Source: a virus
Direction: 5' to 3' (one strand)
Length of the DNA: 64,000 nucleotides
IMG/VR virus record: IMGVR_UViG_3300027969_000074
Location: 1 to 64,000 of that record
The notes below the pieces were generated by a model that worked only from the letters and a program-made list of their open reading frames with translations, ran no database searches and had not been told where the DNA came from. The position numbers and the translations under genes are program-made. This document shows, one piece after another, positions 13,932-49,785 of the stretch. The stretch's first letter is position 1; each line of letters starts with the position of its first letter.

Positions 13932-15230
13932 TTAATTGGATAAAGGCGCTTTAATTGATTGATGTGATTGATAATTGCCTAATTGAATATCTTCCTCCAA
14001 TAAACACTTACAAAAATTATCATCAGTGAAATTATTAAATATTGAGATTGCCTCTATTGGGCCATCTTCAGTTTCTCTAGCCCAAAACTCAGTATTAATA
14101 TTTAAAGAAGGTAATTCAAACGGTACTCTACTATAATATGGAATCTTATAAATATCATAATATTCAGAAAGACCTCCGCCGAATGGCATTAGTTCAGCAA
14201 CCGCTGACTGGTACGCGACCGGTCCCATTGCATCTTTCAACATAGACCCCCGTTCTTCATGGTCATATTTTCTTCCAATTTGTTCTTTTGCTTGTTCAAT
14301 ATGATTTGAATATAAATGAGTATCACCTAAATTTCCTATCAATTCGTCAGGTACCATATTAACTGAAGTAGCAATGATTTCCAATAACAATCCATAAGAA
14401 GCAATATTGAATGGTAAACCTAAAAACGTATCTACTGAACGTTGATTCCACATTAAAGAGATTGCTCTTGTCGGTAAACGTAACTTGTCAGCCCATTCTT
14501 TTGTTAATATTCCATCTATATTTATCTTATAACCATAGTCTTCTCTTTCTTCCCAACTCAACTCTCTCGTATAAACTTGAAATCCATAATGACAAGGTGG
14601 GAGAACCATTTGGTTTAATTCACCCACATTCCAAGCACTAACCATCAATCGTCTTGAGTCTGGATTTGTTTTAAGGTCGTTGATTAGGTTTGCTATTTGG
14701 TCTATAGGTTCATGTAAGGTATATCCAGTATTGTCTCCACTGTAATCTACTATCATGTTATCAAAATTTACTTTGTTCCATTTTCTCCATTGCTTACCGT
14801 AAATTGAACCTAACTCCCCCCACTTCTTAGCAAACTCATCATCTGTTTTAATACGTTCAATAAATCCTTCTTTACTTAGAATATTGTAATCAGTTGCCTC
14901 TTTAAGTATACCCTCGTCAGTAGCTTTATCAATTGATAGCTTAACGGTCTTTTCATAATTCTTATATGCATCACCATCCCAAATATGACATCCGTTATCA
15001 ACTAAGAACTTGATATTAGTATCGCCACGTAGGAACCATAACAATTCAGTTACAATAGTTTTAAATGGCATCTTCTTAGTTGTAAGTAAAGGAAATCCTT
15101 CTGACATTTTGTGTCTGATTTGTCTTCCAAATACCGAAATCGTACCAGTTCCTGTTCTGTCAGATTTGGTTACTCCATTATCTAAAATATCTTGGAGTAG
15201 TGCTTGATATTGTTTATCTAAACTATTCAT
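13932..15230 (-). CDS. thyA: Thymidylate synthase with insertions
   Basis: DRTGTGT, ELLWFLRG, PDSRR, LPPCH, QRSVD.FLGLPFNIASY, DTHLY.NH. Confidence 0.96.
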   Translation of the reverse strand: MNSLDKQYQALLQDILDNGVTKSDRTGTGTISVFGRQIRHKMSEGFPLLTTKKMPFKTIVTELLWFLRGDTNIKFLVDNGCHIWDGDAYKNYEKTVKLSIDKATDEGILKEATDYNILSKEGFIERIKTDDEFAKKWGELGSIYGKQWRKWNKVNFDNMIVDYSGDNTGYTLHEPIDQIANLINDLKTNPDSRRLMVSAWNVGELNQMVLPPCHYGFQVYTRELSWEEREDYGYKINIDGILTKEWADKLRLPTRAISLMWNQRSVDTFLGLPFNIASYGLLLEIIATSVNMVPDELIGNLGDTHLYSNHIEQAKEQIGRKYDHEERGSMLKDAMGPVAYQSAVAELMPFGGGLSEYYDIYKIPYYSRVPFELPSLNINTEFWARETEDGPIEAISIFNNFTDDNFCKCLLEEDIQLGNYQSHQSIKAPLSN

Positions 15231-15232
15231 AA

Positions 15233-15380
15233 TTAAAACGGTTCATTAATAATTTGGTTAAGTCGTTTAATTTCAGCGATTACGTCATCACCTAATTCAA
15301 TTTTAGACATCATTGATAAGTCCATTACTTGACTGTATAATACTTTGATTAATAGGTCTTTTGCTTCTTCTTTGTTCATA
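15233..15380 (-). CDS. Small hypothetical protein
   Basis: Likely start MNKEEAK just after the stop of 15382..15735. Confidence 0.4.
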
Positions 15381-15381
15381 G

Positions 15382-15735
15382 TTAAAAATTTATTTCTCTC
15401 CAAGGACCTTCGTTTTGCCAAAATTCATAGGTTTCCCCGTCCTTAAATTGTTTATTATTTGATTTTATTTTTGAAATTTCAGCTGCTGCTTTAACTCCTT
15501 GGCGATTTGTAATTATTTGTTTCCATTGACTGTTTACCTCAGTAATTACAGGATCTTCAAAATTAATTGATACTCCAGTTTGGTCAATTATTACGACCTT
15601 TACTGAACCCAATACTTGCCAATCTGAACCAACTGTGATTCCATAAAGAAACAGGGTCCTAGACTCTTCAAGTTCCCCATGTGATTTTACTAGCTGATTA
15701 AATACTAGATTGCCTAAGTCAATAATATCTTTCAT
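15382..15735 (-). CDS. Hypothetical protein (predicted leaderless)
   Basis: TAGTATAAT-N6-ATG. Confidence 0.55.
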   Translation of the reverse strand: MKDIIDLGNLVFNQLVKSHGELEESRTLFLYGITVGSDWQVLGSVKVVIIDQTGVSINFEDPVITEVNSQWKQIITNRQGVKAAAEISKIKSNNKQFKDGETYEFWQNEGPWREINF

Positions 15736-15747
15736 GTTTTTATTATA

Positions 15748-16554
15748 CTATGATTGTAGACTTGGAACCCAATGTGTTGTGCGACCGTCTGGTGTTTCTT
15801 CCCTAACCACTACATTGCCTAATGGATCCTGTTTTTGAGCATAGACTTCAAACTCAAAGGTAAAGTCGCCAGCTTCTCCATTTACTTGGCGATAATTTCT
15901 GATACTTGCTCCGCCTTGATCGTATGAAGCTTTCATTATTAATTTACCCCAATTCCATAATTGACAGATCTCATCTTGTGTTAAATCTTGCACCAATCGA
16001 TATGGAGATATTTTAGAGCGATAGAGCATTTCACATTTAATATAATTACCAATGCCAGCAAACAAGGACTGATTCATTAGTGCTTCTGCAACAGTTTTTT
16101 TCTGAACTTTAGGCAGTTCAACCTTTCTAACAAAATCATACATGCTGGAAGTTTGATCGTTTAACATGTCAAGCCCAAGGCTCTCCAATTTTTTTGAAAG
16201 CTCTGACTTCAGTGTGAACTTTAAGGTACCGAATCGGCGCTGATCAACAAAATACAGAGACGTACCATCCTCAAAACCTATTCGGAAATGGCTATGAGGC
16301 TTAAGGCCAGTTGACCAGTACCCGCTCATTCCCAGTGTTATCCAGAGGCATGTCTCGTCACTAAATTCCAGCCAGATGAATTTGCCCTTAACTCCACCGC
16401 CGGTCACACGGACTGGCACCGATGTTTTAACGTTAAGATCGGGAGCCCTTTTTAGGAAACGGCCACCTAGCACCTCAAATTGACTAATTGTTTTTGTTTT
16501 AGCGATTTCCGAGATTCCCTCGTAAACTCGTCTGCATTCCGGACCTTCTGGCAT
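15748..16554 (-). CDS. Fpg/Nei DNA glycosylase/AP lyase, zincless-finger type
   Basis: MPEGPE, KGKF, LGMSG, DQRRFG, H2TH AGIGNY..E; no Cys4 finger (GRTTHWVP..Q). Confidence 0.93.
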   Translation of the reverse strand: MPEGPECRRVYEGISEIAKTKTISQFEVLGGRFLKRAPDLNVKTSVPVRVTGGGVKGKFIWLEFSDETCLWITLGMSGYWSTGLKPHSHFRIGFEDGTSLYFVDQRRFGTLKFTLKSELSKKLESLGLDMLNDQTSSMYDFVRKVELPKVQKKTVAEALMNQSLFAGIGNYIKCEMLYRSKISPYRLVQDLTQDEICQLWNWGKLIMKASYDQGGASIRNYRQVNGEAGDFTFEFEVYAQKQDPLGNVVVREETPDGRTTHWVPSLQS

Positions 16555-16590
16555 TAGATAAATAAGTTTATAAAATTATACCAAAAACAA

Positions 16591-17157
16591 ATGAAAAATT
16601 ACATTGCACTATTTGAAAGCTTTGAAGAGAGTTACGATGAATTCCACCAAGCACCAAATACAAAATCGGATTCTTTTTACCATAATATTTCAAAAGATCT
16701 AATTGAATTAGCTAGTAACTATACAAATGAGCCAGTTGAAATTGATCAACACTCCAATAAGTATGAAACGGCAAGCCGAATTAAAGATTTACAAAATGAT
16801 CTTATTACAAAAATTTATGACGAATTTGGAGAAGATATTGCTCAAAGTTTTGCAGACGAGTCTGATGCACTATTAGCAAGCCTAGAAATTTCCGAAAAGA
16901 AAAAAGGTTTATGGGATAATATTAATGCAAAAAGAAAGCGTGGAGAAAAACCTGCAAAGCCAGGAGAAAAAGGTTATCCAGCTCCAGGTGCTTTAAAATC
17001 TGCACAGAAAACTGAAGAGTCTATGAATAAGAAAAAGGTATTTGCAAAGACAAATAATATTCCAGACAATGGAGTGTTAAATGGTTCTAAAAAAGATACT
17101 AATATGGAAACTGGTAAAATGCCTCAATCTTTAAACCCTCGTAAAACTACTCGATAA
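16591..17157 (+). CDS. Hypothetical virion-internal protein, acidic N-half and basic C-half
   Basis: MKNYIALFESFEE; GLWDNINAKRKRGEKPAKPG; ATAAATAA at 16558-16565. Confidence 0.6.
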   Translation: MKNYIALFESFEESYDEFHQAPNTKSDSFYHNISKDLIELASNYTNEPVEIDQHSNKYETASRIKDLQNDLITKIYDEFGEDIAQSFADESDALLASLEISEKKKGLWDNINAKRKRGEKPAKPGEKGYPAPGALKSAQKTEESMNKKKVFAKTNNIPDNGVLNGSKKDTNMETGKMPQSLNPRKTTR

Positions 17158-17193
17158 TTTACTAGTATAACATAACATAAATTTAAAAGCAAT

Positions 17194-17391
17194 ATGTATT
17201 ATCTAGCAAAATTAAGATTTGAGTCGGAAGACGACAACGGCAAAACGAAAAAAATTCGTGAACAGTACTTGGTTGAAGCAACTTCAATTGGAGAAGCCGA
17301 AGAAAAATTATTAAAAAGATTTGGTGAAGGAATTTCCCCATGTCAATTAGAAGCGGTTCAAGAATCAAAGATTCTAGGCCTAATCGAATAA
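17194..17391 (+). CDS. DUF4494-like small protein
   Basis: Y.AK.RF....NGK.KK..EQYLVEA.S..EAE pattern recalled from the Bacteroidota family. Confidence 0.65.
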   Translation: MYYLAKLRFESEDDNGKTKKIREQYLVEATSIGEAEEKLLKRFGEGISPCQLEAVQESKILGLIE

Positions 17392-17407
17392 CCTAACTTA
17401 CTTAAAT

Positions 17408-17436
17408 AAAAAAGAGAGCAATTGCTCTCTTTTTTT
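17408..17436. terminator. Bidirectional intrinsic terminator
   Basis: A5-GAGAGC-AATT-GCTCTC-T-run. Confidence 0.85.
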
Positions 17437-17725
17437 ATGTATGTTTTACTGGAACTTTACAGACTGAAATTATCTTTCCAATTGGCGACCACCTGGCCTC
17501 TTCTTCATATGCAAACTTTTTGGTATCCCAAAGTTTAACTGAGCCAGTTTGATTCATTAGGGTCTGGGCAGCGCGTTCTGTTAAATTTGGAAAAGAAATT
17601 GCAGCTTCAAACAGTGCAATTTTATAGGCTCCCCTAAACGTACCAATAACGCATAGATGAGTTTGGGCTTCTCCAGTGACAGCTGTTATTAAGCAGACTT
17701 CTTTTGCTCTGGCTGGACTAGGCAT
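17435..17725 (-). CDS. Hypothetical protein
   Basis: 96-aa ORF coupled to the upstream gene. Confidence 0.5.
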   Translation of the reverse strand: MPSPARAKEVCLITAVTGEAQTHLCVIGTFRGAYKIALFEAAISFPNLTERAAQTLMNQTGSVKLWDTKKFAYEEEARWSPIGKIISVCKVPVKHT

Positions 17726-17942
17726 TAAAATATACCGGAAATTTTTCGACTAGACTTTTCAAGATTTGATTGTCAGTCTGGCCAGTTTTTGACTTTTCGT
17801 AAATATGATCCATCATATCTATACTGGTTGAATTGCCAATTACTGCATCAATTTTACGATTAATAAATTGAGTCGGCCCGTTTAATTTTACCTGTCTAGC
17901 AACTTCGGCTGGTTCAGGTACAAAATATTTGTTAAATCCCAT
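17718..17942 (-). CDS. Hypothetical protein
   Basis: Likely start MGFNKYF at 17942, 9 nt after GAGTATAAT. Confidence 0.5.
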   Translation of the reverse strand: MGFNKYFVPEPAEVARQVKLNGPTQFINRKIDAVIGNSTSIDMMDHIYEKSKTGQTDNQILKSLVEKFPVYFNA

Positions 17943-17966
17943 AGTAATATTATTATACTCTGTAAA

Positions 17967-18000
17967 CAAAAAAAAGGCTAGCTTTTTTACGGCTAGCCTT
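17967..18000 (-). terminator. Intrinsic terminator of the putative ncRNA
   Basis: Minus strand: AAGGCTAGC-CGTAAAAAA-GCTAGCC-T9. Confidence 0.85.
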
Positions 18001-18005
18001 GGTAT

Positions 18006-18421
18006 CGTCGGAAAAAACGTATGAGAGGGGTAGGGTTTACCTCCAATTTGATGCTGAGCTTGCGTTATAACGACAACCTTCGTACACTCCTGTCAGAGTC
18101 GACTCAAAGCAAGTTGGATCCGCTTGAATCACTATCGTGTTAACCACAACAGTACGAGTGCTTTATCCCACCTAGCAAAGGATTATTCAGCCATTTAACG
18201 GGACTATTTTATACCCGTATGCCGATTGCAAAATACCGAATATGTATATCAAAACCTTAGATTCCAGTGGTTAACTGGTTCAAGTTGATCGTTTGATCTG
18301 CTGGTTTCATCCAGCCCTTGCGGAGCATCCTCCTAATCTAAACCATTACCTGTTTTACAATCAGGTTGTTCTGGCACATACTCCTAACAGGATCATGACT
18401 TCCTACTAGGTTTTTCCAACG
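18006..18421 (-). ncRNA. Putative large structured non-coding RNA (family unassigned)
   Basis: No ORF in the track; about 43% GC by hand count; 11-bp end-closing helix, many hairpins, two crossing long-range helices; upstream TATAAT and downstream terminator. Confidence 0.75.
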
Positions 18422-18425
18422 TAAA

Positions 18426-18481
18426 TTAAAGAACGATTATTGTAAAGTCTATTTATTATATCTAGTCTGGCCAAAAAGTTT
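18426..18481 (-). promoter_or_regulatory. Promoter (AAAC-N17-TATAAT) and boxA-like element for the ncRNA
   Basis: Minus strand AAAAC-TTTTTGGCCAGACTAGA-TATAAT (18460-18455), then CGTTCTTTAA (18435-18426). Confidence 0.6.
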
Positions 18482-18536
18482 TTGAAAAAATTTTAAAAGT
18501 AGCCAAATAAATAACCTAAAATAATTTTTATACATT

Positions 18537-19622
18537 ATGGCAGTAAGCTACACCAATCCAGTATGTTACAATGGATTAAATCGACCAAATAGAGATGCCG
18601 TTAGTTTCGGCCCAGTTTCATTAGGTACAGTTCGTAAAGACTACACTACTCTAATAAACAACAACTGGCGGGCAGGTATTAACCCAGGAATAAACACGGT
18701 AATCTATACTGACACGTATAGCCGCGGAGTTGATACTCAAGCAGCTGCGGTACCTTCAATTCATTGGATTAGTGGTCAATCTCAAGCAAATATTACTGAA
18801 CTAATTAGTCGTTTACCTGAAAGATCAGCAAATAATTACGAATTATTTGCAGATTATGCAACAGCTATTGCCTGGCTAATTGGTACTTATCAATACATGT
18901 TAGTTAACACAAAATATCCTGAATATTTACTACCTCCTGAATGTGCGGCAAATATTGAATTAGGATTCCTAGCAAGTTATCCAGGAACTGATATTGCGGT
19001 TTATGATTTAATTAGTAACAATAATTTTGGAGCAGTTGACGGTGCATTTGTTGCTCCAAGTGCTGGAAGTTTCGTAGGTTATTTTGAGACAGGCGGTAAT
19101 AACGGTAGATTAGAAACACCAAATCTTAGAAATGCCACTGGTAATAACTTCAATGGATCTCTAGTAGTAGAGGGAGTATTCTATCAAGATCGAGACTTAA
19201 ATGGCCACTATTTAGTAGGCACGCTAAACGATAGTATTTCAATTATAGTGGACAACCTAAAAATTACTGTAAAATCCGGTAATACTAATATGGAATTTCG
19301 TAATTTAGCACCACTACAAAACGCTGGAATATTTCATATGGTTGCATATGTTCCAGCTGGCGCAGAAGATCCAAACGACGCCAAACTTTGGATAAATGGT
19401 GTAGATATGGGAATGCCAGCGGTAAGCGGCTCAGGCTTAGCTTCAAGATCGGTTCCAAGTTTGTGTTTATGTGAATCTGCTATTGCTCTAACCCATGCAA
19501 CAACTACTCGAGTTTATGGATTTAAAGCTTATGAATACGGGAATGCGGGACAAGCAATAAGTGACGTTCCTAACCTTGCAACTGCAAACTATGCAGCAAT
19601 TTCTACGATTTACGGAATCTAA
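18537..19622 (+). CDS. Virion structural/decoration protein with LamG/ConA-like C-terminal domain
   Basis: ASYPGT..VYDL; FHMVAY...KLWING; Asn/Gly-rich; ATAAATAA at 18507-18514. Confidence 0.55.
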   Translation: MAVSYTNPVCYNGLNRPNRDAVSFGPVSLGTVRKDYTTLINNNWRAGINPGINTVIYTDTYSRGVDTQAAAVPSIHWISGQSQANITELISRLPERSANNYELFADYATAIAWLIGTYQYMLVNTKYPEYLLPPECAANIELGFLASYPGTDIAVYDLISNNNFGAVDGAFVAPSAGSFVGYFETGGNNGRLETPNLRNATGNNFNGSLVVEGVFYQDRDLNGHYLVGTLNDSISIIVDNLKITVKSGNTNMEFRNLAPLQNAGIFHMVAYVPAGAEDPNDAKLWINGVDMGMPAVSGSGLASRSVPSLCLCESAIALTHATTTRVYGFKAYEYGNAGQAISDVPNLATANYAAISTIYGI

Positions 19623-19846
19623 TCTTTAAACTGATATTCTTTAGCAATGGATTCTCTTAATGAGAATCCATTGTCGTTTAAGAAGGACTGAAAATCTGTG
19701 AATTTATAATTAACACGGCAGTCAGTTTGACTACAGTGGACTGTAATATAGGTATGATTTAGGCAACTAACGCTGATGTCTTTAACTTGATGGTCAATTC
19801 CATCTTTGGTTAGGGTAGTATTGATTAGGGATAAACAGTCTCTCAT
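19619..19846 (-). CDS. Small hypothetical protein
   Basis: ATGA-coupled to 19843..20067. Confidence 0.4.
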   Translation of the reverse strand: MRDCLSLINTTLTKDGIDHQVKDISVSCLNHTYITVHCSQTDCRVNYKFTDFQSFLNDNGFSLRESIAKEYQFKD

Positions 19847-20067
19847 ACAGATAGTTTTTTATAACGCCAACGAAAGTAGATAGAGGATCCAAAGAATACT
19901 GCCGCAATACAGTACATAACGAAATTGGCTCGCCACAAGCTGCCAGTTGCTTCGATTAGCCAAAATTGGACAATATCGAAGCCAAATGGATTGAAAAATA
20001 GGGCAAGCATCATGCTCCAGGTTGATAGATTCCCAAATAGGGTTCTTCTTCGTGTTTCGACTATCAC
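19843..20067 (-). CDS. Small two-TM membrane protein
   Basis: MMLALFFNPFGFD and FVMYCIAAVFFG hydrophobic segments. Confidence 0.55.
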   Translation of the reverse strand: MIVETRRRTLFGNLSTWSMMLALFFNPFGFDIVQFWLIEATGSLWRANFVMYCIAAVFFGSSIYFRWRYKKLSV

Positions 20068-20143
20068 CGTCCATATGTGTCTATTTTTTCAAGCTCACTA
20101 ACTTAAGTTCGCCAGGAAATTTCTAAAATTTCAAATTTATTTA

Positions 20144-20404
20144 TTACCACTTAGGTTCCTCGCCAATTTGATCTAGTGCGCAATGAAAGCCTACCAGTCT
20201 GGTCTTGGCCTCTAAGAAACAGCCACATATACCGCACTGGGTTAGGATCTCGCCAAAATGCGGACACTCTTTACAAATTGCCATTCGACGGTCTTTTTCT
20301 GTATCATTCACAAATACTTTATTCATGATTCTACTAAGCACAGTAGTTTGTGGAACTGGTTGGTTATTGCTGCAACCACAGCCTTGAGTTGTTTCGTCAG
20401 CCAT
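20144..20404 (-). CDS. Cys-rich metal-binding protein (DUF6171-like)
   Basis: R.AIC..C......C..CGCF..AK......C.....KW. Confidence 0.65.
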   Translation of the reverse strand: MADETTQGCGCSNNQPVPQTTVLSRIMNKVFVNDTEKDRRMAICKECPHFGEILTQCGICGCFLEAKTRLVGFHCALDQIGEEPKW

Positions 20405-21378
20405 TATGCTTCGATTTTTTCAAATAGTCTCTTATCGTCAAACTCTAAATAGCTTTCAAGTAAAGAGCTAAAACCTTCGCGATACTTAAGTACAGCTAAG
20501 TCTTTGGCCTTTGCCTCAATTTCAATATCTATTGCCTGACCATAATTATTTATTTGCTCATAAATGTAATCAGCATGAGACCTCGCAATTACGCTTGGAT
20601 CCTCGAATGTTTTTTTACTACTTGAATAATGAGTAAGCGGAGTATGGCCGTGCCAAGTGGTAGCAGCCAGCTTAAGCGCAGCCTCTTCAGTAAGATCACT
20701 AGTATTAAACCGGTGATGATGAAAATCAAAAGTAATAGGAGTACCTATTTCAAGATACACCAATTGATATAGATCGACTACTGAATATTGAGTAGCCTTA
20801 TCGTCATTTTCTACAACCAGCCTGGCTTTGGTATTTGGTTTAAGTAGTTGAAAATTCTCGCAAAAACGTTTAGCTGCTGCCGTTTTATCGCCATAAGTAC
20901 CGCCAATATGAATATTGATTGGGAAACCTACATTGGTTGGCAACTTCATAAGATCCATAATTTCGCAGTGCTGATCCAGATCCTTTACGGTTTTTGCAAC
21001 AACATCGGCTCTAGGAGAAGGCAAGACATCGAACTGGCCTGGGTGCATTGATACCCTGATATTATTTGCAACTGCAAACTTGCCAATCTCTTGCATGTCT
21101 GATAAAATTTCAGGAAAATGTGGCAGCATTTGAATTTCATATTCTGACATCCATGGAAAAATATCGCTTGACATTCTGTACACATAAATGCCATTGGCTA
21201 AATTCCATTCCAGAATTTTTAGAACATCTTTTATATTTTGATGTGCAAGCTCGGCACAATATTCAAGGCCCTTTTCCTGAAAGGTTTTACGGATCATACC
21301 TCGATTGGCTGTAATTTTTTGGTCGGCTAATGACAAGTTAATGCAACAATAACCCAAACGGACGTTAGTATCTTTCAT
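20404..21378 (-). CDS. uvsE: UV DNA damage endonuclease (UvsE/UVDE)
   Basis: LGYCC, YRMSS..FP, SMHPGQF, VENDD, FDFHHH, HADYI, EAKAK. Confidence 0.95.
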   Translation of the reverse strand: MKDTNVRLGYCCINLSLADQKITANRGMIRKTFQEKGLEYCAELAHQNIKDVLKILEWNLANGIYVYRMSSDIFPWMSEYEIQMLPHFPEILSDMQEIGKFAVANNIRVSMHPGQFDVLPSPRADVVAKTVKDLDQHCEIMDLMKLPTNVGFPINIHIGGTYGDKTAAAKRFCENFQLLKPNTKARLVVENDDKATQYSVVDLYQLVYLEIGTPITFDFHHHRFNTSDLTEEAALKLAATTWHGHTPLTHYSSSKKTFEDPSVIARSHADYIYEQINNYGQAIDIEIEAKAKDLAVLKYREGFSSLLESYLEFDDKRLFEKIEA

Positions 21379-21390
21379 GTAGTTATTATA

Positions 21391-21669
21391 CTACAAAATT
21401 GTATTGGCAAGCTGAACCGATAGCCAAATACCTAAATACGAACCTGCTACTGAGCCGGCAACATAACCAAACCATTGGTGTAGTGAATCTTCGCTCTTTG
21501 CAATTTTTCGGATTACAAAAAAGTTTAGTGAAGCTATTGTAAAATCACTAACTGCTGCTAAGTGATATTGAGTTTCAGCAACTGCTCTAAAATTTATACA
21601 TAGAATTCCATATAGCACAAGCTGAATAGCAAATAGTAATAGACACTCCTTTAGTTTTAAAATATTCAT
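21391..21669 (-). CDS. Small three-TM membrane protein
   Basis: Hydrophobic helices; Y..G...G...G motif. Confidence 0.55.
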   Translation of the reverse strand: MNILKLKECLLLFAIQLVLYGILCINFRAVAETQYHLAAVSDFTIASLNFFVIRKIAKSEDSLHQWFGYVAGSVAGSYLGIWLSVQLANTIL

Positions 21670-21678
21670 CCTAGTTAA

Positions 21679-22305
21679 TTAAAATTTGTTGGGTGATTGG
21701 TAACCATTCGTAACTGACCTGATGACTCTAACTACATCTAATGCATCCTGCAAAGCATCATGGGTTACTTCTCCAGATAGCTCGCATCGATCCATACATG
21801 TCTGTAAATTTGGTAAACTCTCGTCAGTGTGCCAGTCCATTAATAGAATAGCTGGATCCAGGATACGTTGCCTCATTTGAATTGAACTCATCCAGTTTGG
21901 AAGTTTCTGTAGAAATACTTTATCAAAACTTGCAAAGTTTTTACCGGCAACATTAATCTTTACACCACCAGTCGCTTCACATGGAAATCCGTTTGAGATT
22001 AACCACATTTGAAAAGATTTGGCAACAAGCCCGGCAGGTAAAATATTATGCTCTTTTCGATAGGCCAAACGCTCTTCCTTGGTTTTATTCTCAAGACCGC
22101 CAAGAATTTTTAAGATCCATGAATTTAATGAAAGCGCAAATGAACTTCCAGCATAAGCTTCATGTTCAATGATACACTGAAACTTAGGTAGCTGATCGTA
22201 AGGTACAGGCTTTTGAGTGTCTTCAATCACTGCACCGATTTGAAGAATTTGACAAGACTCTGGGTTAAGGCCAGTCGTCTCAATATCAATTGAAATATAT
22301 TTCAT
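21679..22305 (-). CDS. DEDDh 3'-5' exonuclease
   Basis: IDIETTG, N..SFD..FL, HDALQDA. Confidence 0.9.
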   Translation of the reverse strand: MKYISIDIETTGLNPESCQILQIGAVIEDTQKPVPYDQLPKFQCIIEHEAYAGSSFALSLNSWILKILGGLENKTKEERLAYRKEHNILPAGLVAKSFQMWLISNGFPCEATGGVKINVAGKNFASFDKVFLQKLPNWMSSIQMRQRILDPAILLMDWHTDESLPNLQTCMDRCELSGEVTHDALQDALDVVRVIRSVTNGYQSPNKF

Positions 22306-22316
22306 ATGTATATGGA

Positions 22317-22736
22317 TTAAAATGGTAAATCGCTATCATCACTAAATGGATTAGCTGGAGCGGCTGATTTTTTAGGACCTGTGTCAATTCCAAGACTGCG
22401 GAAGATTTCATCATCTTCGTCCTCTTCTTCAACTTTTTTACTTTTAGTGGATGCGCGTTGCTGACCACTAATTCGGTAAGCTTCAAGACTGTTGAAGTAT
22501 TTGGTTTGACCAGACTTATCAGTCCAGTCTCTACCTTTTACGTCAAACGAAATAGAGACAGTGTCTCCGATGCCGTATGAATCGATCATATCGCATTTAT
22601 CTTGGACTAATCCAAATATTATTTTTTGTGGGTACTTGTCCCCTGATTCAATTACAAACTCTCTTTTGCGAAAGCCTTTGTTAAATGTCTGTGCTGGGAA
22701 TATTTCGATAATTACCCCTGTTAATTCAAATGCCAT
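22317..22736 (-). CDS. DUF3127-like OB-fold protein, probable single-stranded DNA-binding protein
   Basis: F.KREFVI...KYPQ..F...QDK; YFNSL.A.RI; acidic SSB-type tail DDSDLPF. Confidence 0.8.
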   Translation of the reverse strand: MAFELTGVIIEIFPAQTFNKGFRKREFVIESGDKYPQKIIFGLVQDKCDMIDSYGIGDTVSISFDVKGRDWTDKSGQTKYFNSLEAYRISGQQRASTKSKKVEEEDEDDEIFRSLGIDTGPKKSAAPANPFSDDSDLPF

Positions 22737-22737
22737 A

Positions 22738-23217
22738 TTAGAAATCGTGATTAGTTATTTTTATATCGTAGTTAGTAAAATTTTCAAAATCTTTGCGGTC
22801 TGCTTCAAGTCGACGTTCAACTGAATCTCCTGGCATATTACGGCTAATCATACGCTGCCGTCTAATCTCTTCATCTATATCAAAAAAGATTACAAGTGAC
22901 TCTTTACGTGCATCATCAGATAAATGGGCTAAACCAGACGGGGTCATAATAAAAAGATCGTCTTGTTCAAATTGGTCAACGGTTGTTCCGTATATCCAGT
23001 TATTAAACGCAACCCATTCGTAAAATTGATCGGTGTCAATCATGTCTTGAGCCTGCGGCCGGGTCATGAAAAAATAATCTTTTCCATGTACCTCACCTTC
23101 TCTTGGAGGTCTTGTTGTGTAACTGATTGCGTATTTAAACCCGCGATCTTCAAATTTTTTGCGAAGGAAATCCTTTCCGCTTGCGGCTTTGCCGACTAAA
23201 ATTATTCGTTTGCTCAT
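22738..23217 (-). CDS. gmk: Guanylate kinase-like nucleoside monophosphate kinase
   Basis: GKAASGKD, SYTTRPPREGEVHGKDYFF, FYEW..F....YGT. Confidence 0.9.
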   Translation of the reverse strand: MSKRIILVGKAASGKDFLRKKFEDRGFKYAISYTTRPPREGEVHGKDYFFMTRPQAQDMIDTDQFYEWVAFNNWIYGTTVDQFEQDDLFIMTPSGLAHLSDDARKESLVIFFDIDEEIRRQRMISRNMPGDSVERRLEADRKDFENFTNYDIKITNHDF

Positions 23218-23225
23218 ATATTAAA

Positions 23226-24515
23226 TTAAAATTCTCTCTTTTGACCGTGAACTGCTTTAAATACTGGAAATCTTAGTGAGTGAGCACCATGTTGATCAGT
23301 AGTTTCTTCAAAGAATTGTACAGTAATTGTTTTACCTAAAATTTCATTTGGGTTTTCGTGATAGTGTCGTCTTTGTTCAAGATTAAAGCCTGAACCTACT
23401 CTAACTGTATTACCTTTGTGTTCTACAATTACGGCTTTTAGCATAAGCTCTTCAACTTCTTTACCCATATCAATAATACGATTTACGTCAGATTCAAGAT
23501 CGATTACTACATATTCTGCATCATGCATCTTTTTAACCTTAAGTAGATTCTTTGAGCGCTTGCCTTCGTATCCAATATCCTTACGCATCATTACACCTTC
23601 ATAACCCATTTCAGTTGCATCAGCCACAATCTTTTCAAATTCCTCAATTGATTTTATTTGAAATTGGGGTAATGGTTCAGCATAGGTTAGGCCAGTTACA
23701 ATTGCATTTAAGATGATTAGTCGGGCTGAAAGAGAAACGTCTCCGGCTTGATTCCAAAATTCAGATGATTCTAAAAAATCAAACACATAATATTTTGGAT
23801 TCTGTATAGTATGGTTTTTTCTACCAATTTCTTTGATAACCCCCTGGAAATCTTCAAGTCCGCCAGGTTTCATAACGCAAACTTCTCCATCCAATACTTT
23901 ATTCTTTAATCCAAGCCTCTTAATATCTTGAGCCAAGATTGAAAGCGTTAAAAATTCGTTGCCAGCTCGTGAATAAAACTTAGGTTCGCCATGTTCGTCA
24001 ATTACGGTAATACAACGAACTCCATCAAGCTTACGACTTGCCCACCATTCTCCAGACTCAAAGTTTACCTTTTTTTCATTACCATCAAACTTCTCAGCTA
24101 GGGCAACATCAAATGTAGGTACTGTACCTGGCATTACTGAATTAATTAAGGTAGTAGTTGCTCTAGTCTTTAAGTTTCGGTCTATCACATCATAGATGAC
24201 CTCCGCGAACTCCTGATTTTTAGCAATAAAACCATTAACTACTTGAATAGCATTGTGACCTGTGATTAGCCTTGCATCCAGATCATTAAGTAAATCAAAT
24301 AGATCATCATAGTTATCAAAACTAAGATCCTGACGTTTCTTTAAATTATCTGAAGTAACATAATACTGTTTAAATGGAGAATAGACGTATTCAAACAGCT
24401 TACGTAATACTGGAGTATCGTAACGTTTAAGTATCTCTTTCTTATCGTTTGTTGAAGAAGTCGCTTTCATTTCGTCAATGAATTGTGCAACTAATTTAAA
24501 ATCTTGGTTTGTCAT
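23226..24515 (-). CDS. ATP-dependent DNA ligase
   Basis: KLDGVRC, LDGE, FD, EGVM.R, LLKVK, VGSGF, LRFP. Confidence 0.95.
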   Translation of the reverse strand: MTNQDFKLVAQFIDEMKATSSTNDKKEILKRYDTPVLRKLFEYVYSPFKQYYVTSDNLKKRQDLSFDNYDDLFDLLNDLDARLITGHNAIQVVNGFIAKNQEFAEVIYDVIDRNLKTRATTTLINSVMPGTVPTFDVALAEKFDGNEKKVNFESGEWWASRKLDGVRCITVIDEHGEPKFYSRAGNEFLTLSILAQDIKRLGLKNKVLDGEVCVMKPGGLEDFQGVIKEIGRKNHTIQNPKYYVFDFLESSEFWNQAGDVSLSARLIILNAIVTGLTYAEPLPQFQIKSIEEFEKIVADATEMGYEGVMMRKDIGYEGKRSKNLLKVKKMHDAEYVVIDLESDVNRIIDMGKEVEELMLKAVIVEHKGNTVRVGSGFNLEQRRHYHENPNEILGKTITVQFFEETTDQHGAHSLRFPVFKAVHGQKREF

Positions 24516-49414: not shown

Positions 49415-49778
49415 GGGGATAACCGGTTTTGACAGAAATTATCGGTTACGCTTGCACGCCGAGGATGATGCTAAGACTCGTTAAAATGTATTACAAACAA
49501 TAAGTGGCAACACTACTTTCTGGAGCCTAGTTAACCAAGGCGTTAACACTCCTGTTACTGAAGAGCTTTTAGCTGCATAAGTAACCAAGCGGCAACTGCT
49601 TGACTAACCAAAGTTGCAAAACCAGCATGGCGTAGCGGCCAAGTCGAACCGTTACCGACTTTAGCTTTAAGTCGTTAAAGAATAAGATATTTCGTCCAAT
49701 TAGAAAAATGGACTAAGCGTGTAAATGAAAGTTTAATTAGAGGTTTTTTGGACGGCGGTTCGATTCCGCCTATCTCCA
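49415..49778 (+). ncRNA. ssrA: tmRNA (transfer-messenger RNA)
   Basis: GGGGATA/TATCTCC-A acceptor stem with G3:U; 5' GGTTTTGAC; T-arm GGCGG-TTCGATT-CCGCC; tag ORF 49506-49580 ends LAA-stop. Confidence 0.93.
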
Positions 49779-49785
49779 CACCACA

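Follow-up and report, generated by a model that had tools for sequence, protein, structure and literature searches.

The locus, its relatives and its candidate transcription signals

The window analysed here is a stretch of 64,000 nucleotides (nt) that forms part of an 89-kb IMG/VR record (IMGVR_UViG_3300027969_000074) of an uncultured phage estimated to be 33% complete, and the element in question is a structured RNA of 416 nt that would be read from the minus strand between positions 18421 and 18006. By sequence and pairing pattern it is a rearranged, double-core relative of the manA RNA motif (RF01745), and it is probably the product of a free-standing gene. The window encodes, among other proteins, a terminase and a baseplate wedge protein, and the nearest relatives of the terminase (30-37% identity) come from uncultured huge phages and from jumbo phages of Sphingomonas, Tenacibaculum and Flavobacterium. 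The RNA occupies a gap of about 0.5 kb that had been described as free of open reading frames (ORFs), and indeed no ORF longer than 40 amino acids (aa) is present at 17970-18536. Its GC content, 43.0% at 18006-18421 as against 35.3% for the window, agrees with an earlier hand count of about 43%, above that of the flanks.

The surrounding genes belong to a DNA-repair and nucleotide cluster (13932-24515) that includes a thymidylate synthase (13932-15230), an Fpg/Nei-like ORF (15748-16554), the UV endonuclease UvdE (20404-21378) and an ATP-dependent DNA ligase (23226-24515). The Fpg/Nei-like label is our own reading of an MPEGPE N terminus, for which PHROGs gives no function. Searches of Pfam, PHROGs and the ESM Atlas returned nothing on the neighbouring proteins of 74, 96 and 361 aa.

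Relatives of the RNA were gathered through the neighbouring protein and through DNA patterns in viral, metagenome and species-genome collections, followed by nhmmer filtering. Six distinct versions from three phage lineages were obtained: the window itself, its close relatives L004 and L006, a copy in a 253-kb genome that is 94% complete (L070), L150 and L128. L150 is a 2.4-kb contig (CAWULW010000156.1, 2395 nt) that also holds the start of a homologue of the 74-aa gene; it was binned into the metagenome-assembled genome of an uncultured member of the Holophagaceae (Acidobacteriota), which is either a weak hint of the host or a binning error. Neither the RNA nor the 10 kb around it had a BLAST match among 50,697 phage records. 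Most loci from the first pattern scan (CCAGAACAA...CTGAATAA) were random, and nhmmer retained only the true relatives; a junction pattern recovered from metagenome contigs only the same three lineages, and from species genomes one further variant and two random hits. The spread reported here is that seen by pattern, protein and nhmmer searches, and the true spread may differ. One random pattern hit, an unrelated viral contig, carries a RAGATH-1 hammerhead match below threshold (L131:7503-7583, minus strand; 39.9 bits, cut-off 56.3).

Upstream of the RNA, the original prediction had placed a promoter and a boxA-like element on the minus strand, the latter matching CGTTCTTTAA at 18435-18426. The -10-like hexamer TATAAT is present at 18455-18460, and every lineage has a TATAAT or TATAAA 10-20 nt upstream of the conserved leader, which suggests a promoter belonging to the RNA itself; the proposed -35 element, AAAAC, is poor, and a promoter scan chose a different weak register. 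The leader CGUUCUUUAA (18426-18435, minus strand) sits just 5' of the outer helix of the RNA and may act as a boxA. As GUUCUUUAA it does not vary among the six variants, whereas the sequence upstream of it diverges; three exact copies of the motif occur in the window, which is the chance level. The boxA consensus is a promoter-proximal, GYUCUUUAA-like site for NusB/NusE in an untranslated operon. Downstream, a predicted intrinsic terminator (17968-18000, minus strand) has a 9-bp stem (AAGGCUAGC/GCUAGCCUU), a 9-nt loop and a U-run. Its hairpin at 18000-17974 had been foreseen and draws support from L070 and L150, in which U-A replaces C-G as a compensatory change, but the tail is T8 and not the T9 claimed. 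The terminator scanner, with a loop limit of 8 nt, therefore overlooked it.

At gathering level, the only Rfam match in the window is a phage-borne transfer-messenger RNA gene at 49415-49781 on the plus strand (113.7 bits; tag peptide GNTTFWSLVNQGVNTPVTEELLAA). This gene has a promoter-like site, TAGGTATAAT, directly upstream and a terminator behind it, and no boxA-like leader.

Conservation and consensus structure

The RNA is conserved more strongly than the proteins around it. Its identity to the window version is 96-98%, 93% and 73% across the groups of relatives (73-98% overall between lineages), as compared to 58-66% between lineages for the adjacent 361-aa protein and about 40% between the window and L128 for the downstream 74-aa protein. 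Substitutions are distributed 10/16/9 over the codon positions, with no codon periodicity, and each sequence contains 11 to 15 G.U pairs that would be A.C mismatches on the other strand, in line with the earlier argument for orientation from G:U pairs. The predicted minimum free energy of the minus strand is -138.5 kcal/mol (z -3.5), and the plus strand reaches a z of -2.2. Since the RNA outconserves the proteins, lacks codon periodicity and has G.U pairs that are mismatched on the plus strand, we read the element as an RNA of the minus strand. Of all the explanations weighed here, the least probable is that there is no RNA gene and that a small protein or a DNA-level element is being conserved. 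A 40-aa ORF does exist on the plus strand (18021-18143), and L128 has a similar one, but ORF starts and lengths vary between lineages, the substitutions show no preference of the kind expected from codons, and the changes are concentrated in compensating helix pairs whose G.U asymmetry points to a minus-strand RNA. Short-ORF coding, which the original prediction had raised against itself, is rejected on these grounds.

Pairing was scored per cell in alignments of five (A5) and six (A6) sequences, counting compensatory double changes and using shuffled and slid controls. Five sequences give 98.1% paired cells and double changes at 28 of 123 pairs, a number matched by none of 500 shuffles; the slid controls gave at most eight such pairs. 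With six sequences, 32 of the 123 base pairs are compensated. The covariation among homologues that had been named as a check is present, and the proposal of a stable, structured, independently transcribed noncoding RNA (ncRNA) on the minus strand with a conserved leader and terminator is supported.

The body of the RNA (18006-18421, minus strand) is delimited by the two terminal bases of the outer helix. Read 5' to 3', this helix is followed by a 5' hairpin and a closing stem, then by stems a and b of core 1; helix L, a tip hairpin and helix M come next, and after hairpin d1 stand stems a and b of core 2 and, last, hairpin d2. The outer helix P0 (18411-18421 with 18006-18016) is the 11-bp closing helix of the original prediction and covaries at two pairs (A-U to G-C and A-U to C-G). 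The 5' hairpin H1 (18383-18410), equivalent to the first hairpin of manA, has an invariant loop, AAGUCAUGA, and a 9-bp stem in which five to six of nine pairs are compensated. The closing stem Pc (GUAUG at 18377-18381 with CAUAC at 18019-18023) surrounds both cores, is 100% paired and changes from U-A to C-G in L128; RNAalifold found it unaided, and it is the counterpart of the junction-closing stem of RF01745. Core 1 (18257-18375) is made up of stem a (18375-18342, with a degenerate CCAGAACAA...UAAUGG) and stem b (18341-18257) with three hairpins, and has compensated pairs in stem a, in stem b and in every hairpin stem of stem b. Core 2 (18080-18191) has a stem a with a canonical GCUGAAUAA...AUAAAGC (18191-18160) and a stem b with three hairpins (18157-18080), with compensated pairs in stem b and its third hairpin. 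Hairpin d1 (ACGGG-loop-CCCGU, 18198-18218), whose stem is invariant, corresponds to the last manA hairpin for core 1, and d2 (GGAGG-loop-CCUCU, 18024-18044; 5 bp, one pair compensated) to that for core 2.

Several smaller helices proposed earlier (UUAGAUU/AAUCUAA, GCUGG/CCAGC, CCAGU/ACUGG, UCGUAC/GUACGA, UGUUGUG/CACGAUA and GAUUCAA/UUGAGUC) are all kept, most of them with compensatory changes, but a hairpin with a GCAA tetraloop (CC-GCAA-GG) is not kept in L004, L006 or L128. The description of the RNA as pseudoknotted fares worse. It rested on two crossing 9-bp helices, 18410-18402 with 18179-18171 and 18392-18384 with 18096-18088, which have 74% of their cells paired, no compensation and a shuffle-level score, with 12 and 21 broken cells in six sequences; their 5' arms instead pair with each other as the local 9-bp hairpin H1. 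The window, L070 and L150 (as GUCGG/CCGAC, compensated) have the core-1 hairpin GCUGG...CCAGC (18300-18315 on the minus strand of the window), in place of which L004, L006 and L128 have a shorter element. This variable peripheral helix recalls a remark, in a preprint on manA, that manA variants differ in their peripheral helices (10.64898/2026.07.01.735769).

Relationship to the manA motif

The manA RNA motif was described by Weinberg et al. in 2010 as a likely cis-regulator or riboswitch candidate because it lies upstream of genes (PMC2864571). When 17800-18650 was searched by E-value, the RF01745 model matched 18193-18395, and a search of the whole record gave two matches, at 18188-18408 (45.9 bits, E 4.5e-12) and 18016-18219 (34.9 bits, E 8.4e-9). 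Both cover the full model and stand back to back, overlapping at 18188-18219, where the model uses d1 twice, as the last hairpin of core 1 and as the first hairpin of core 2. Paired matches recur in every homologue (53.6 and 40.4 bits in L128, 50.1 and 40.2 in the L070 genome, 50.2 and 39.8 in L150), and the homologue records hold no second manA locus.

A reading of the RNA as a new class without relation to known families, held together by crossing long-range pseudoknots, draws on the lack of an Rfam family at gathering score and of any BLAST match among the phage records. The two full-length manA matches in all homologues and the failure of the crossing helices in the comparative test make that reading very improbable, and the earlier statement that the RNA could not be assigned to a family has to be given up. 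GOLLD, ROOL, OLE, RNase P and group I and II introns, the families named for checking, had no gathering-level match in the window and none up to E = 10 in 17800-18650; what the Rfam check did yield was manA, below its cut-off. On these sequence grounds the RNA belongs to the manA kind as a new architectural variant and is not a new class.

The elements of manA can be followed through both halves. Stem a with its CUGAAUAA...UAA internal loop is canonical in core 2 and degenerate in core 1; stem b with three hairpins occurs in both cores, with compensated pairs in b1, b1h1, b1h2, b1h3, b2 and b2h3; and the 5' hairpin, d1 and d2 are all present. The manA pattern is a single four-stem junction, whereas here two cores sit within one stem: the junction-closing stem is absent from each half alone, and one covarying closing stem spans both.

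The remaining manA element, stem c, pairs across the cores. Helix L (UUUGAU at 18248-18253 with AUCAAA at 18047-18052; 6 bp), which was found by RNAalifold, joins the 5' strand of stem c in core 1 to the 3' strand of stem c in core 2, and helix M (CGGCA at 18220-18224 with UGUCG at 18071-18075; 5 bp), which we found in addition, does the reverse. Both are 100% paired in the six sequences and each contains a compensated pair, with U-A to C-G in helix L and A-U to U-A in helix M, the latter also changing from G.U to A-U, all in L128. Between them, the tip of stem c in core 1 (18233-18247) forms a hairpin in all variants with differing sequence, for example ACUUC...GAAGU in L128; the tip in core 2 (18070-18053) has no settled hairpin. 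Because the strands of stem c pair across the cores, the two cores are locked together in one chain.

One may ask whether these are simply two ordinary manA RNAs side by side, each with a local stem c, and whether the swap is an artefact of few sequences. The Rfam model does align each half end to end, local stem c included. The unswapped stem, which in manA is a 7-bp stem followed by an internal loop and a 4-bp tip, is here 83.6% paired and without compensation, with a permanent U-C mismatch and four further broken cells in L128, whereas L and M are perfect in all six variants. A single closing stem around both cores, the sharing of one hairpin by the two Rfam matches and the covariation of the same cross-core helices in an independent family (below) also speak against two separate RNAs, and we consider that explanation quite unlikely.

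A second division between the cores concerns two complementary loops. In the RF01745 consensus a GUGGUG loop and a uaACCA loop occur in a single core. Here core 1 has GAUG in place of the GUGGUG kind and keeps UAACC, and core 2 keeps GUGGUUAA and has GACA in place of the ACCA kind, such that each molecule has one loop of each type, split between its cores. The loop GUUAACCAC (18267-18275, minus strand) belongs to the third hairpin of stem b in core 1, and GUGGUUAAC (18139-18147, minus strand), the counterpart of the GUGGUG loop of RF01745, to the first hairpin of stem b in core 2. They are perfect 9-nt complements in the window, with a predicted duplex energy of -11 kcal/mol, and all six variants retain the 7-nt core UAACCAC/GUGGUUA. 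According to the preprint, intermolecular kissing loops, L5-L7' among them, join manA RNAs into decamers built from pentamers and into a 60-mer cage (10.64898/2026.07.01.735769).

Other possible contacts were examined and rejected. Palindromic loops gave no sign of self-association, with seven palindromic hexamers found and 6.6 expected, and both GUUAAC palindromes are gone in L150, where the complementarity between the loops remains. Pairings of the H1 loop AGUCAU with AUGGCU at 18194-18189 and of the core-1 stem-a loop UUGUAAAA with UUUUGCAA at 18233-18226 show no compensatory change, and the number of such candidates is not above chance. A pairing of the core-2 stem-c region with the d1 loop, checked by hand, is not kept in L150.

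A second family of double-core manA-like RNAs of about 410 nt was found on uncultured viral contigs (L180:1004-1414, plus strand; L200:6814-7224, minus strand; L215:807-1222, plus strand) by a looser pattern scan (CTGAATAA...TGNCTGAATAA) that otherwise returned mostly random loci. No sequence similarity to the window RNA was detected, nhmmer having covered L011-L127 and the sequence pattern having no match to this family. Its members give two overlapping RF01745 matches (61.2 and 39.9 bits; 44.7 and 24.6 bits), the second core exceeding the Rfam cut-off at 61.2 bits, and RNAalifold predicts the same cross-core helices with three compensated pairs. Like the window RNA, its members combine an outer helix and a 5' hairpin with a single closing stem that surrounds both cores; d1 is used by both matches, and each molecule has one GUGGU-type and one ACCA-type loop, divided between the cores. 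The family differs in having a canonical CUGAAUAA in both cores, a canonical GGGAU/AUCCC closing stem and the opposite split of the loops: GUGGUG belongs to core 1, UUAACCA to core 2. Because it is found in this family as well, the double-core architecture is recurrent; the layout has no Rfam model and no description in the searchable literature. A canonical manA of 173 bits (L202:2834-3189, plus strand) was also seen, with a second CTGAATAA about 190 nt upstream.

A probable free-standing RNA and its comparison with known systems

Evidence from RNA libraries comes from 24 metatranscriptome runs in 21 lake, freshwater, estuary and marine studies, which hold 21-33% of the words of a 1-kb stretch around the RNA. 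In four runs examined, contigs of 139-398 nt lie wholly inside 18005-18399, one of them at a word depth of 281 (examples span 18005-18399, 18010-18346 and 18017-18383). Metatranscriptome mapping, which the original prediction had suggested, thus places contigs within the RNA body, but a minus-strand transcript is not readable from them. Contig ends at 18005, 18009, 18010 and 18017 in four studies, one of which abuts an Illumina adapter at 18010, fall at the foot of the outer helix and are at most a weak hint of the 3' end. The flanking genes and the terminator hairpin have no contig cover in the runs examined, an absence that is not evidence in itself.

The arrangement downstream bears on whether the RNA is instead a riboswitch with tandem aptamers. 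In that case the 74-aa gene (17942-17718) would have the double manA as its 5' leader, with a ligand deciding termination at 18000-17968. In favour of this, no lineage departs from the shared strand and order of RNA, terminator and gene, although the upstream neighbour is not always the same. The gene nevertheless has a promoter-like site of its own, AGTATAAT (17952-17959, minus strand), between the terminator and its ATG at 17942, conserved behind the terminator in L004, L070, L128 and L150, and it thereby appears separated from the RNA. This site lies 9 nt before the ATG, and there is no Shine-Dalgarno sequence. No alternative pairing between the body and the terminator is conserved in the six variants: a candidate antiterminator, in which the U-run of the outer helix (U6) would pair with the A-rich terminator loop (A6), is lost in L070 and L150. 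The 11-bp helix that shuts the body covaries, and behind it comes AUACCAA, single-stranded and invariant; the contigs from RNA libraries consist of the RNA body alone, and the second double-core family has the same closed design. We therefore regard a riboswitch as unlikely.

Since the RNA and the gene behind it each have a promoter-like site, and the RNA a terminator as well, we read the RNA as free-standing and not as a riboswitch. The element is probably an abundant, structured ncRNA gene of 416 nt whose product is a covalent pseudo-dimer of a self-assembling, manA-derived RNA, and an architectural role is the reading that we favour. Transcription would begin at the TATAAT promoter, the boxA-like leader may guard against early termination of a transcript that is not translated, and transcription would stop at the RNA's terminator, after which the 3' end may be trimmed to the outer helix. 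The two partner loops could then dock within the molecule, or head to tail between molecules, and the RNA would act through its three-dimensional or quaternary architecture rather than as a sensor controlling the next gene.

A number of observations weigh against this reading. Both matches in the window are under the RF01745 gathering cut-off of 55.2 bits, as is the best homologue at 53.6 bits, although the E-values of the two matches are significant and we attribute the low scores to the rearranged layout. Within the family of the window RNA, helices L and M are tested by one divergent lineage (L128), with one compensated pair per helix. The loop-loop pairing is conserved without independent covariation among the six variants, so the contact is one that we infer, and the retained loops are equated with L5 and L7 of the preprint by our own helix count. 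The cages described there formed in vitro, at high RNA and Mg2+ concentrations (10.64898/2026.07.01.735769). RNA-library contigs are no proof of transcription, strand or ends. Finally, a gene on the same strand follows the RNA within 65 nt, and manA itself was proposed as a cis-regulatory riboswitch candidate (PMC2864571).

The free-standing reading can be extended to a possible but doubtful proposal: double-core manA RNAs may be natural covalent dimers of a cage-forming RNA that assemble in infected cells into RNA-only particles or chains. These would form through the remaining complementary loop pair and other contacts, and could serve the phage as a scaffold, compartment or decoy. If this were true, the manA class would consist of architectural RNAs rather than riboswitches. 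Since its description in 2010, manA has remained an orphan riboswitch candidate, and the natural relevance of the cage contacts seen in vitro is at stake. A natural RNA with fused cores, an exchanged helix and divided partner loops suggests that contact between cores is under selection, and that at least this branch of manA works as a free-standing RNA. Double-core RNAs are present in RNA libraries of many lakes and estuaries and in phages other than cyanophages, and they offer structural biologists a ready-made pseudo-dimer to solve. As the present RF01745 model misses every member of the window-RNA family, a separate Rfam model is warranted.

Compared with manA as known, the RNA retains the 5' hairpin, a closing stem around a multi-stem junction, stem a with CUGAAUAA...UAA, the three-hairpin stem b, a terminal hairpin of the GGGUA...UCCC type, complementary loops of the GUGGU and ACCA types, and an aquatic phage origin. 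It differs in having two cores per closing stem, a stem c that runs across them and an extra 11-bp outer helix. Core 1 has the degenerate stem-a motif CCAGAACAA and lacks the GUGGU loop, and core 2 lacks the ACCA loop. It also has its own promoter-like site and terminator, whereas manA takes a position in the 5' untranslated region, and its carrier is a freshwater jumbo phage, with a terminase nearest to those of the jumbo phages named above, and not a T4-like cyanophage.

GOLLD, ROOL and OLE are large ornate RNAs, some of them borne by phages, that are reported to form RNA-only multimers. The double-core RNA resembles them as a large, intricately folded ncRNA, found on a phage and without an assigned biochemical function, for which self-association is a plausible mode of action, but it is smaller, has a different fold and does not match their Rfam models. 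With riboswitches of the glycine type, which carry tandem aptamers (reviewed in PMC9481103), it shares two homologous domains per transcript that are probably in mutual contact. It departs from them in that no expression platform was found here, no ligand is known for manA, strands are exchanged between the two domains, and the downstream gene has a promoter-like site of its own.

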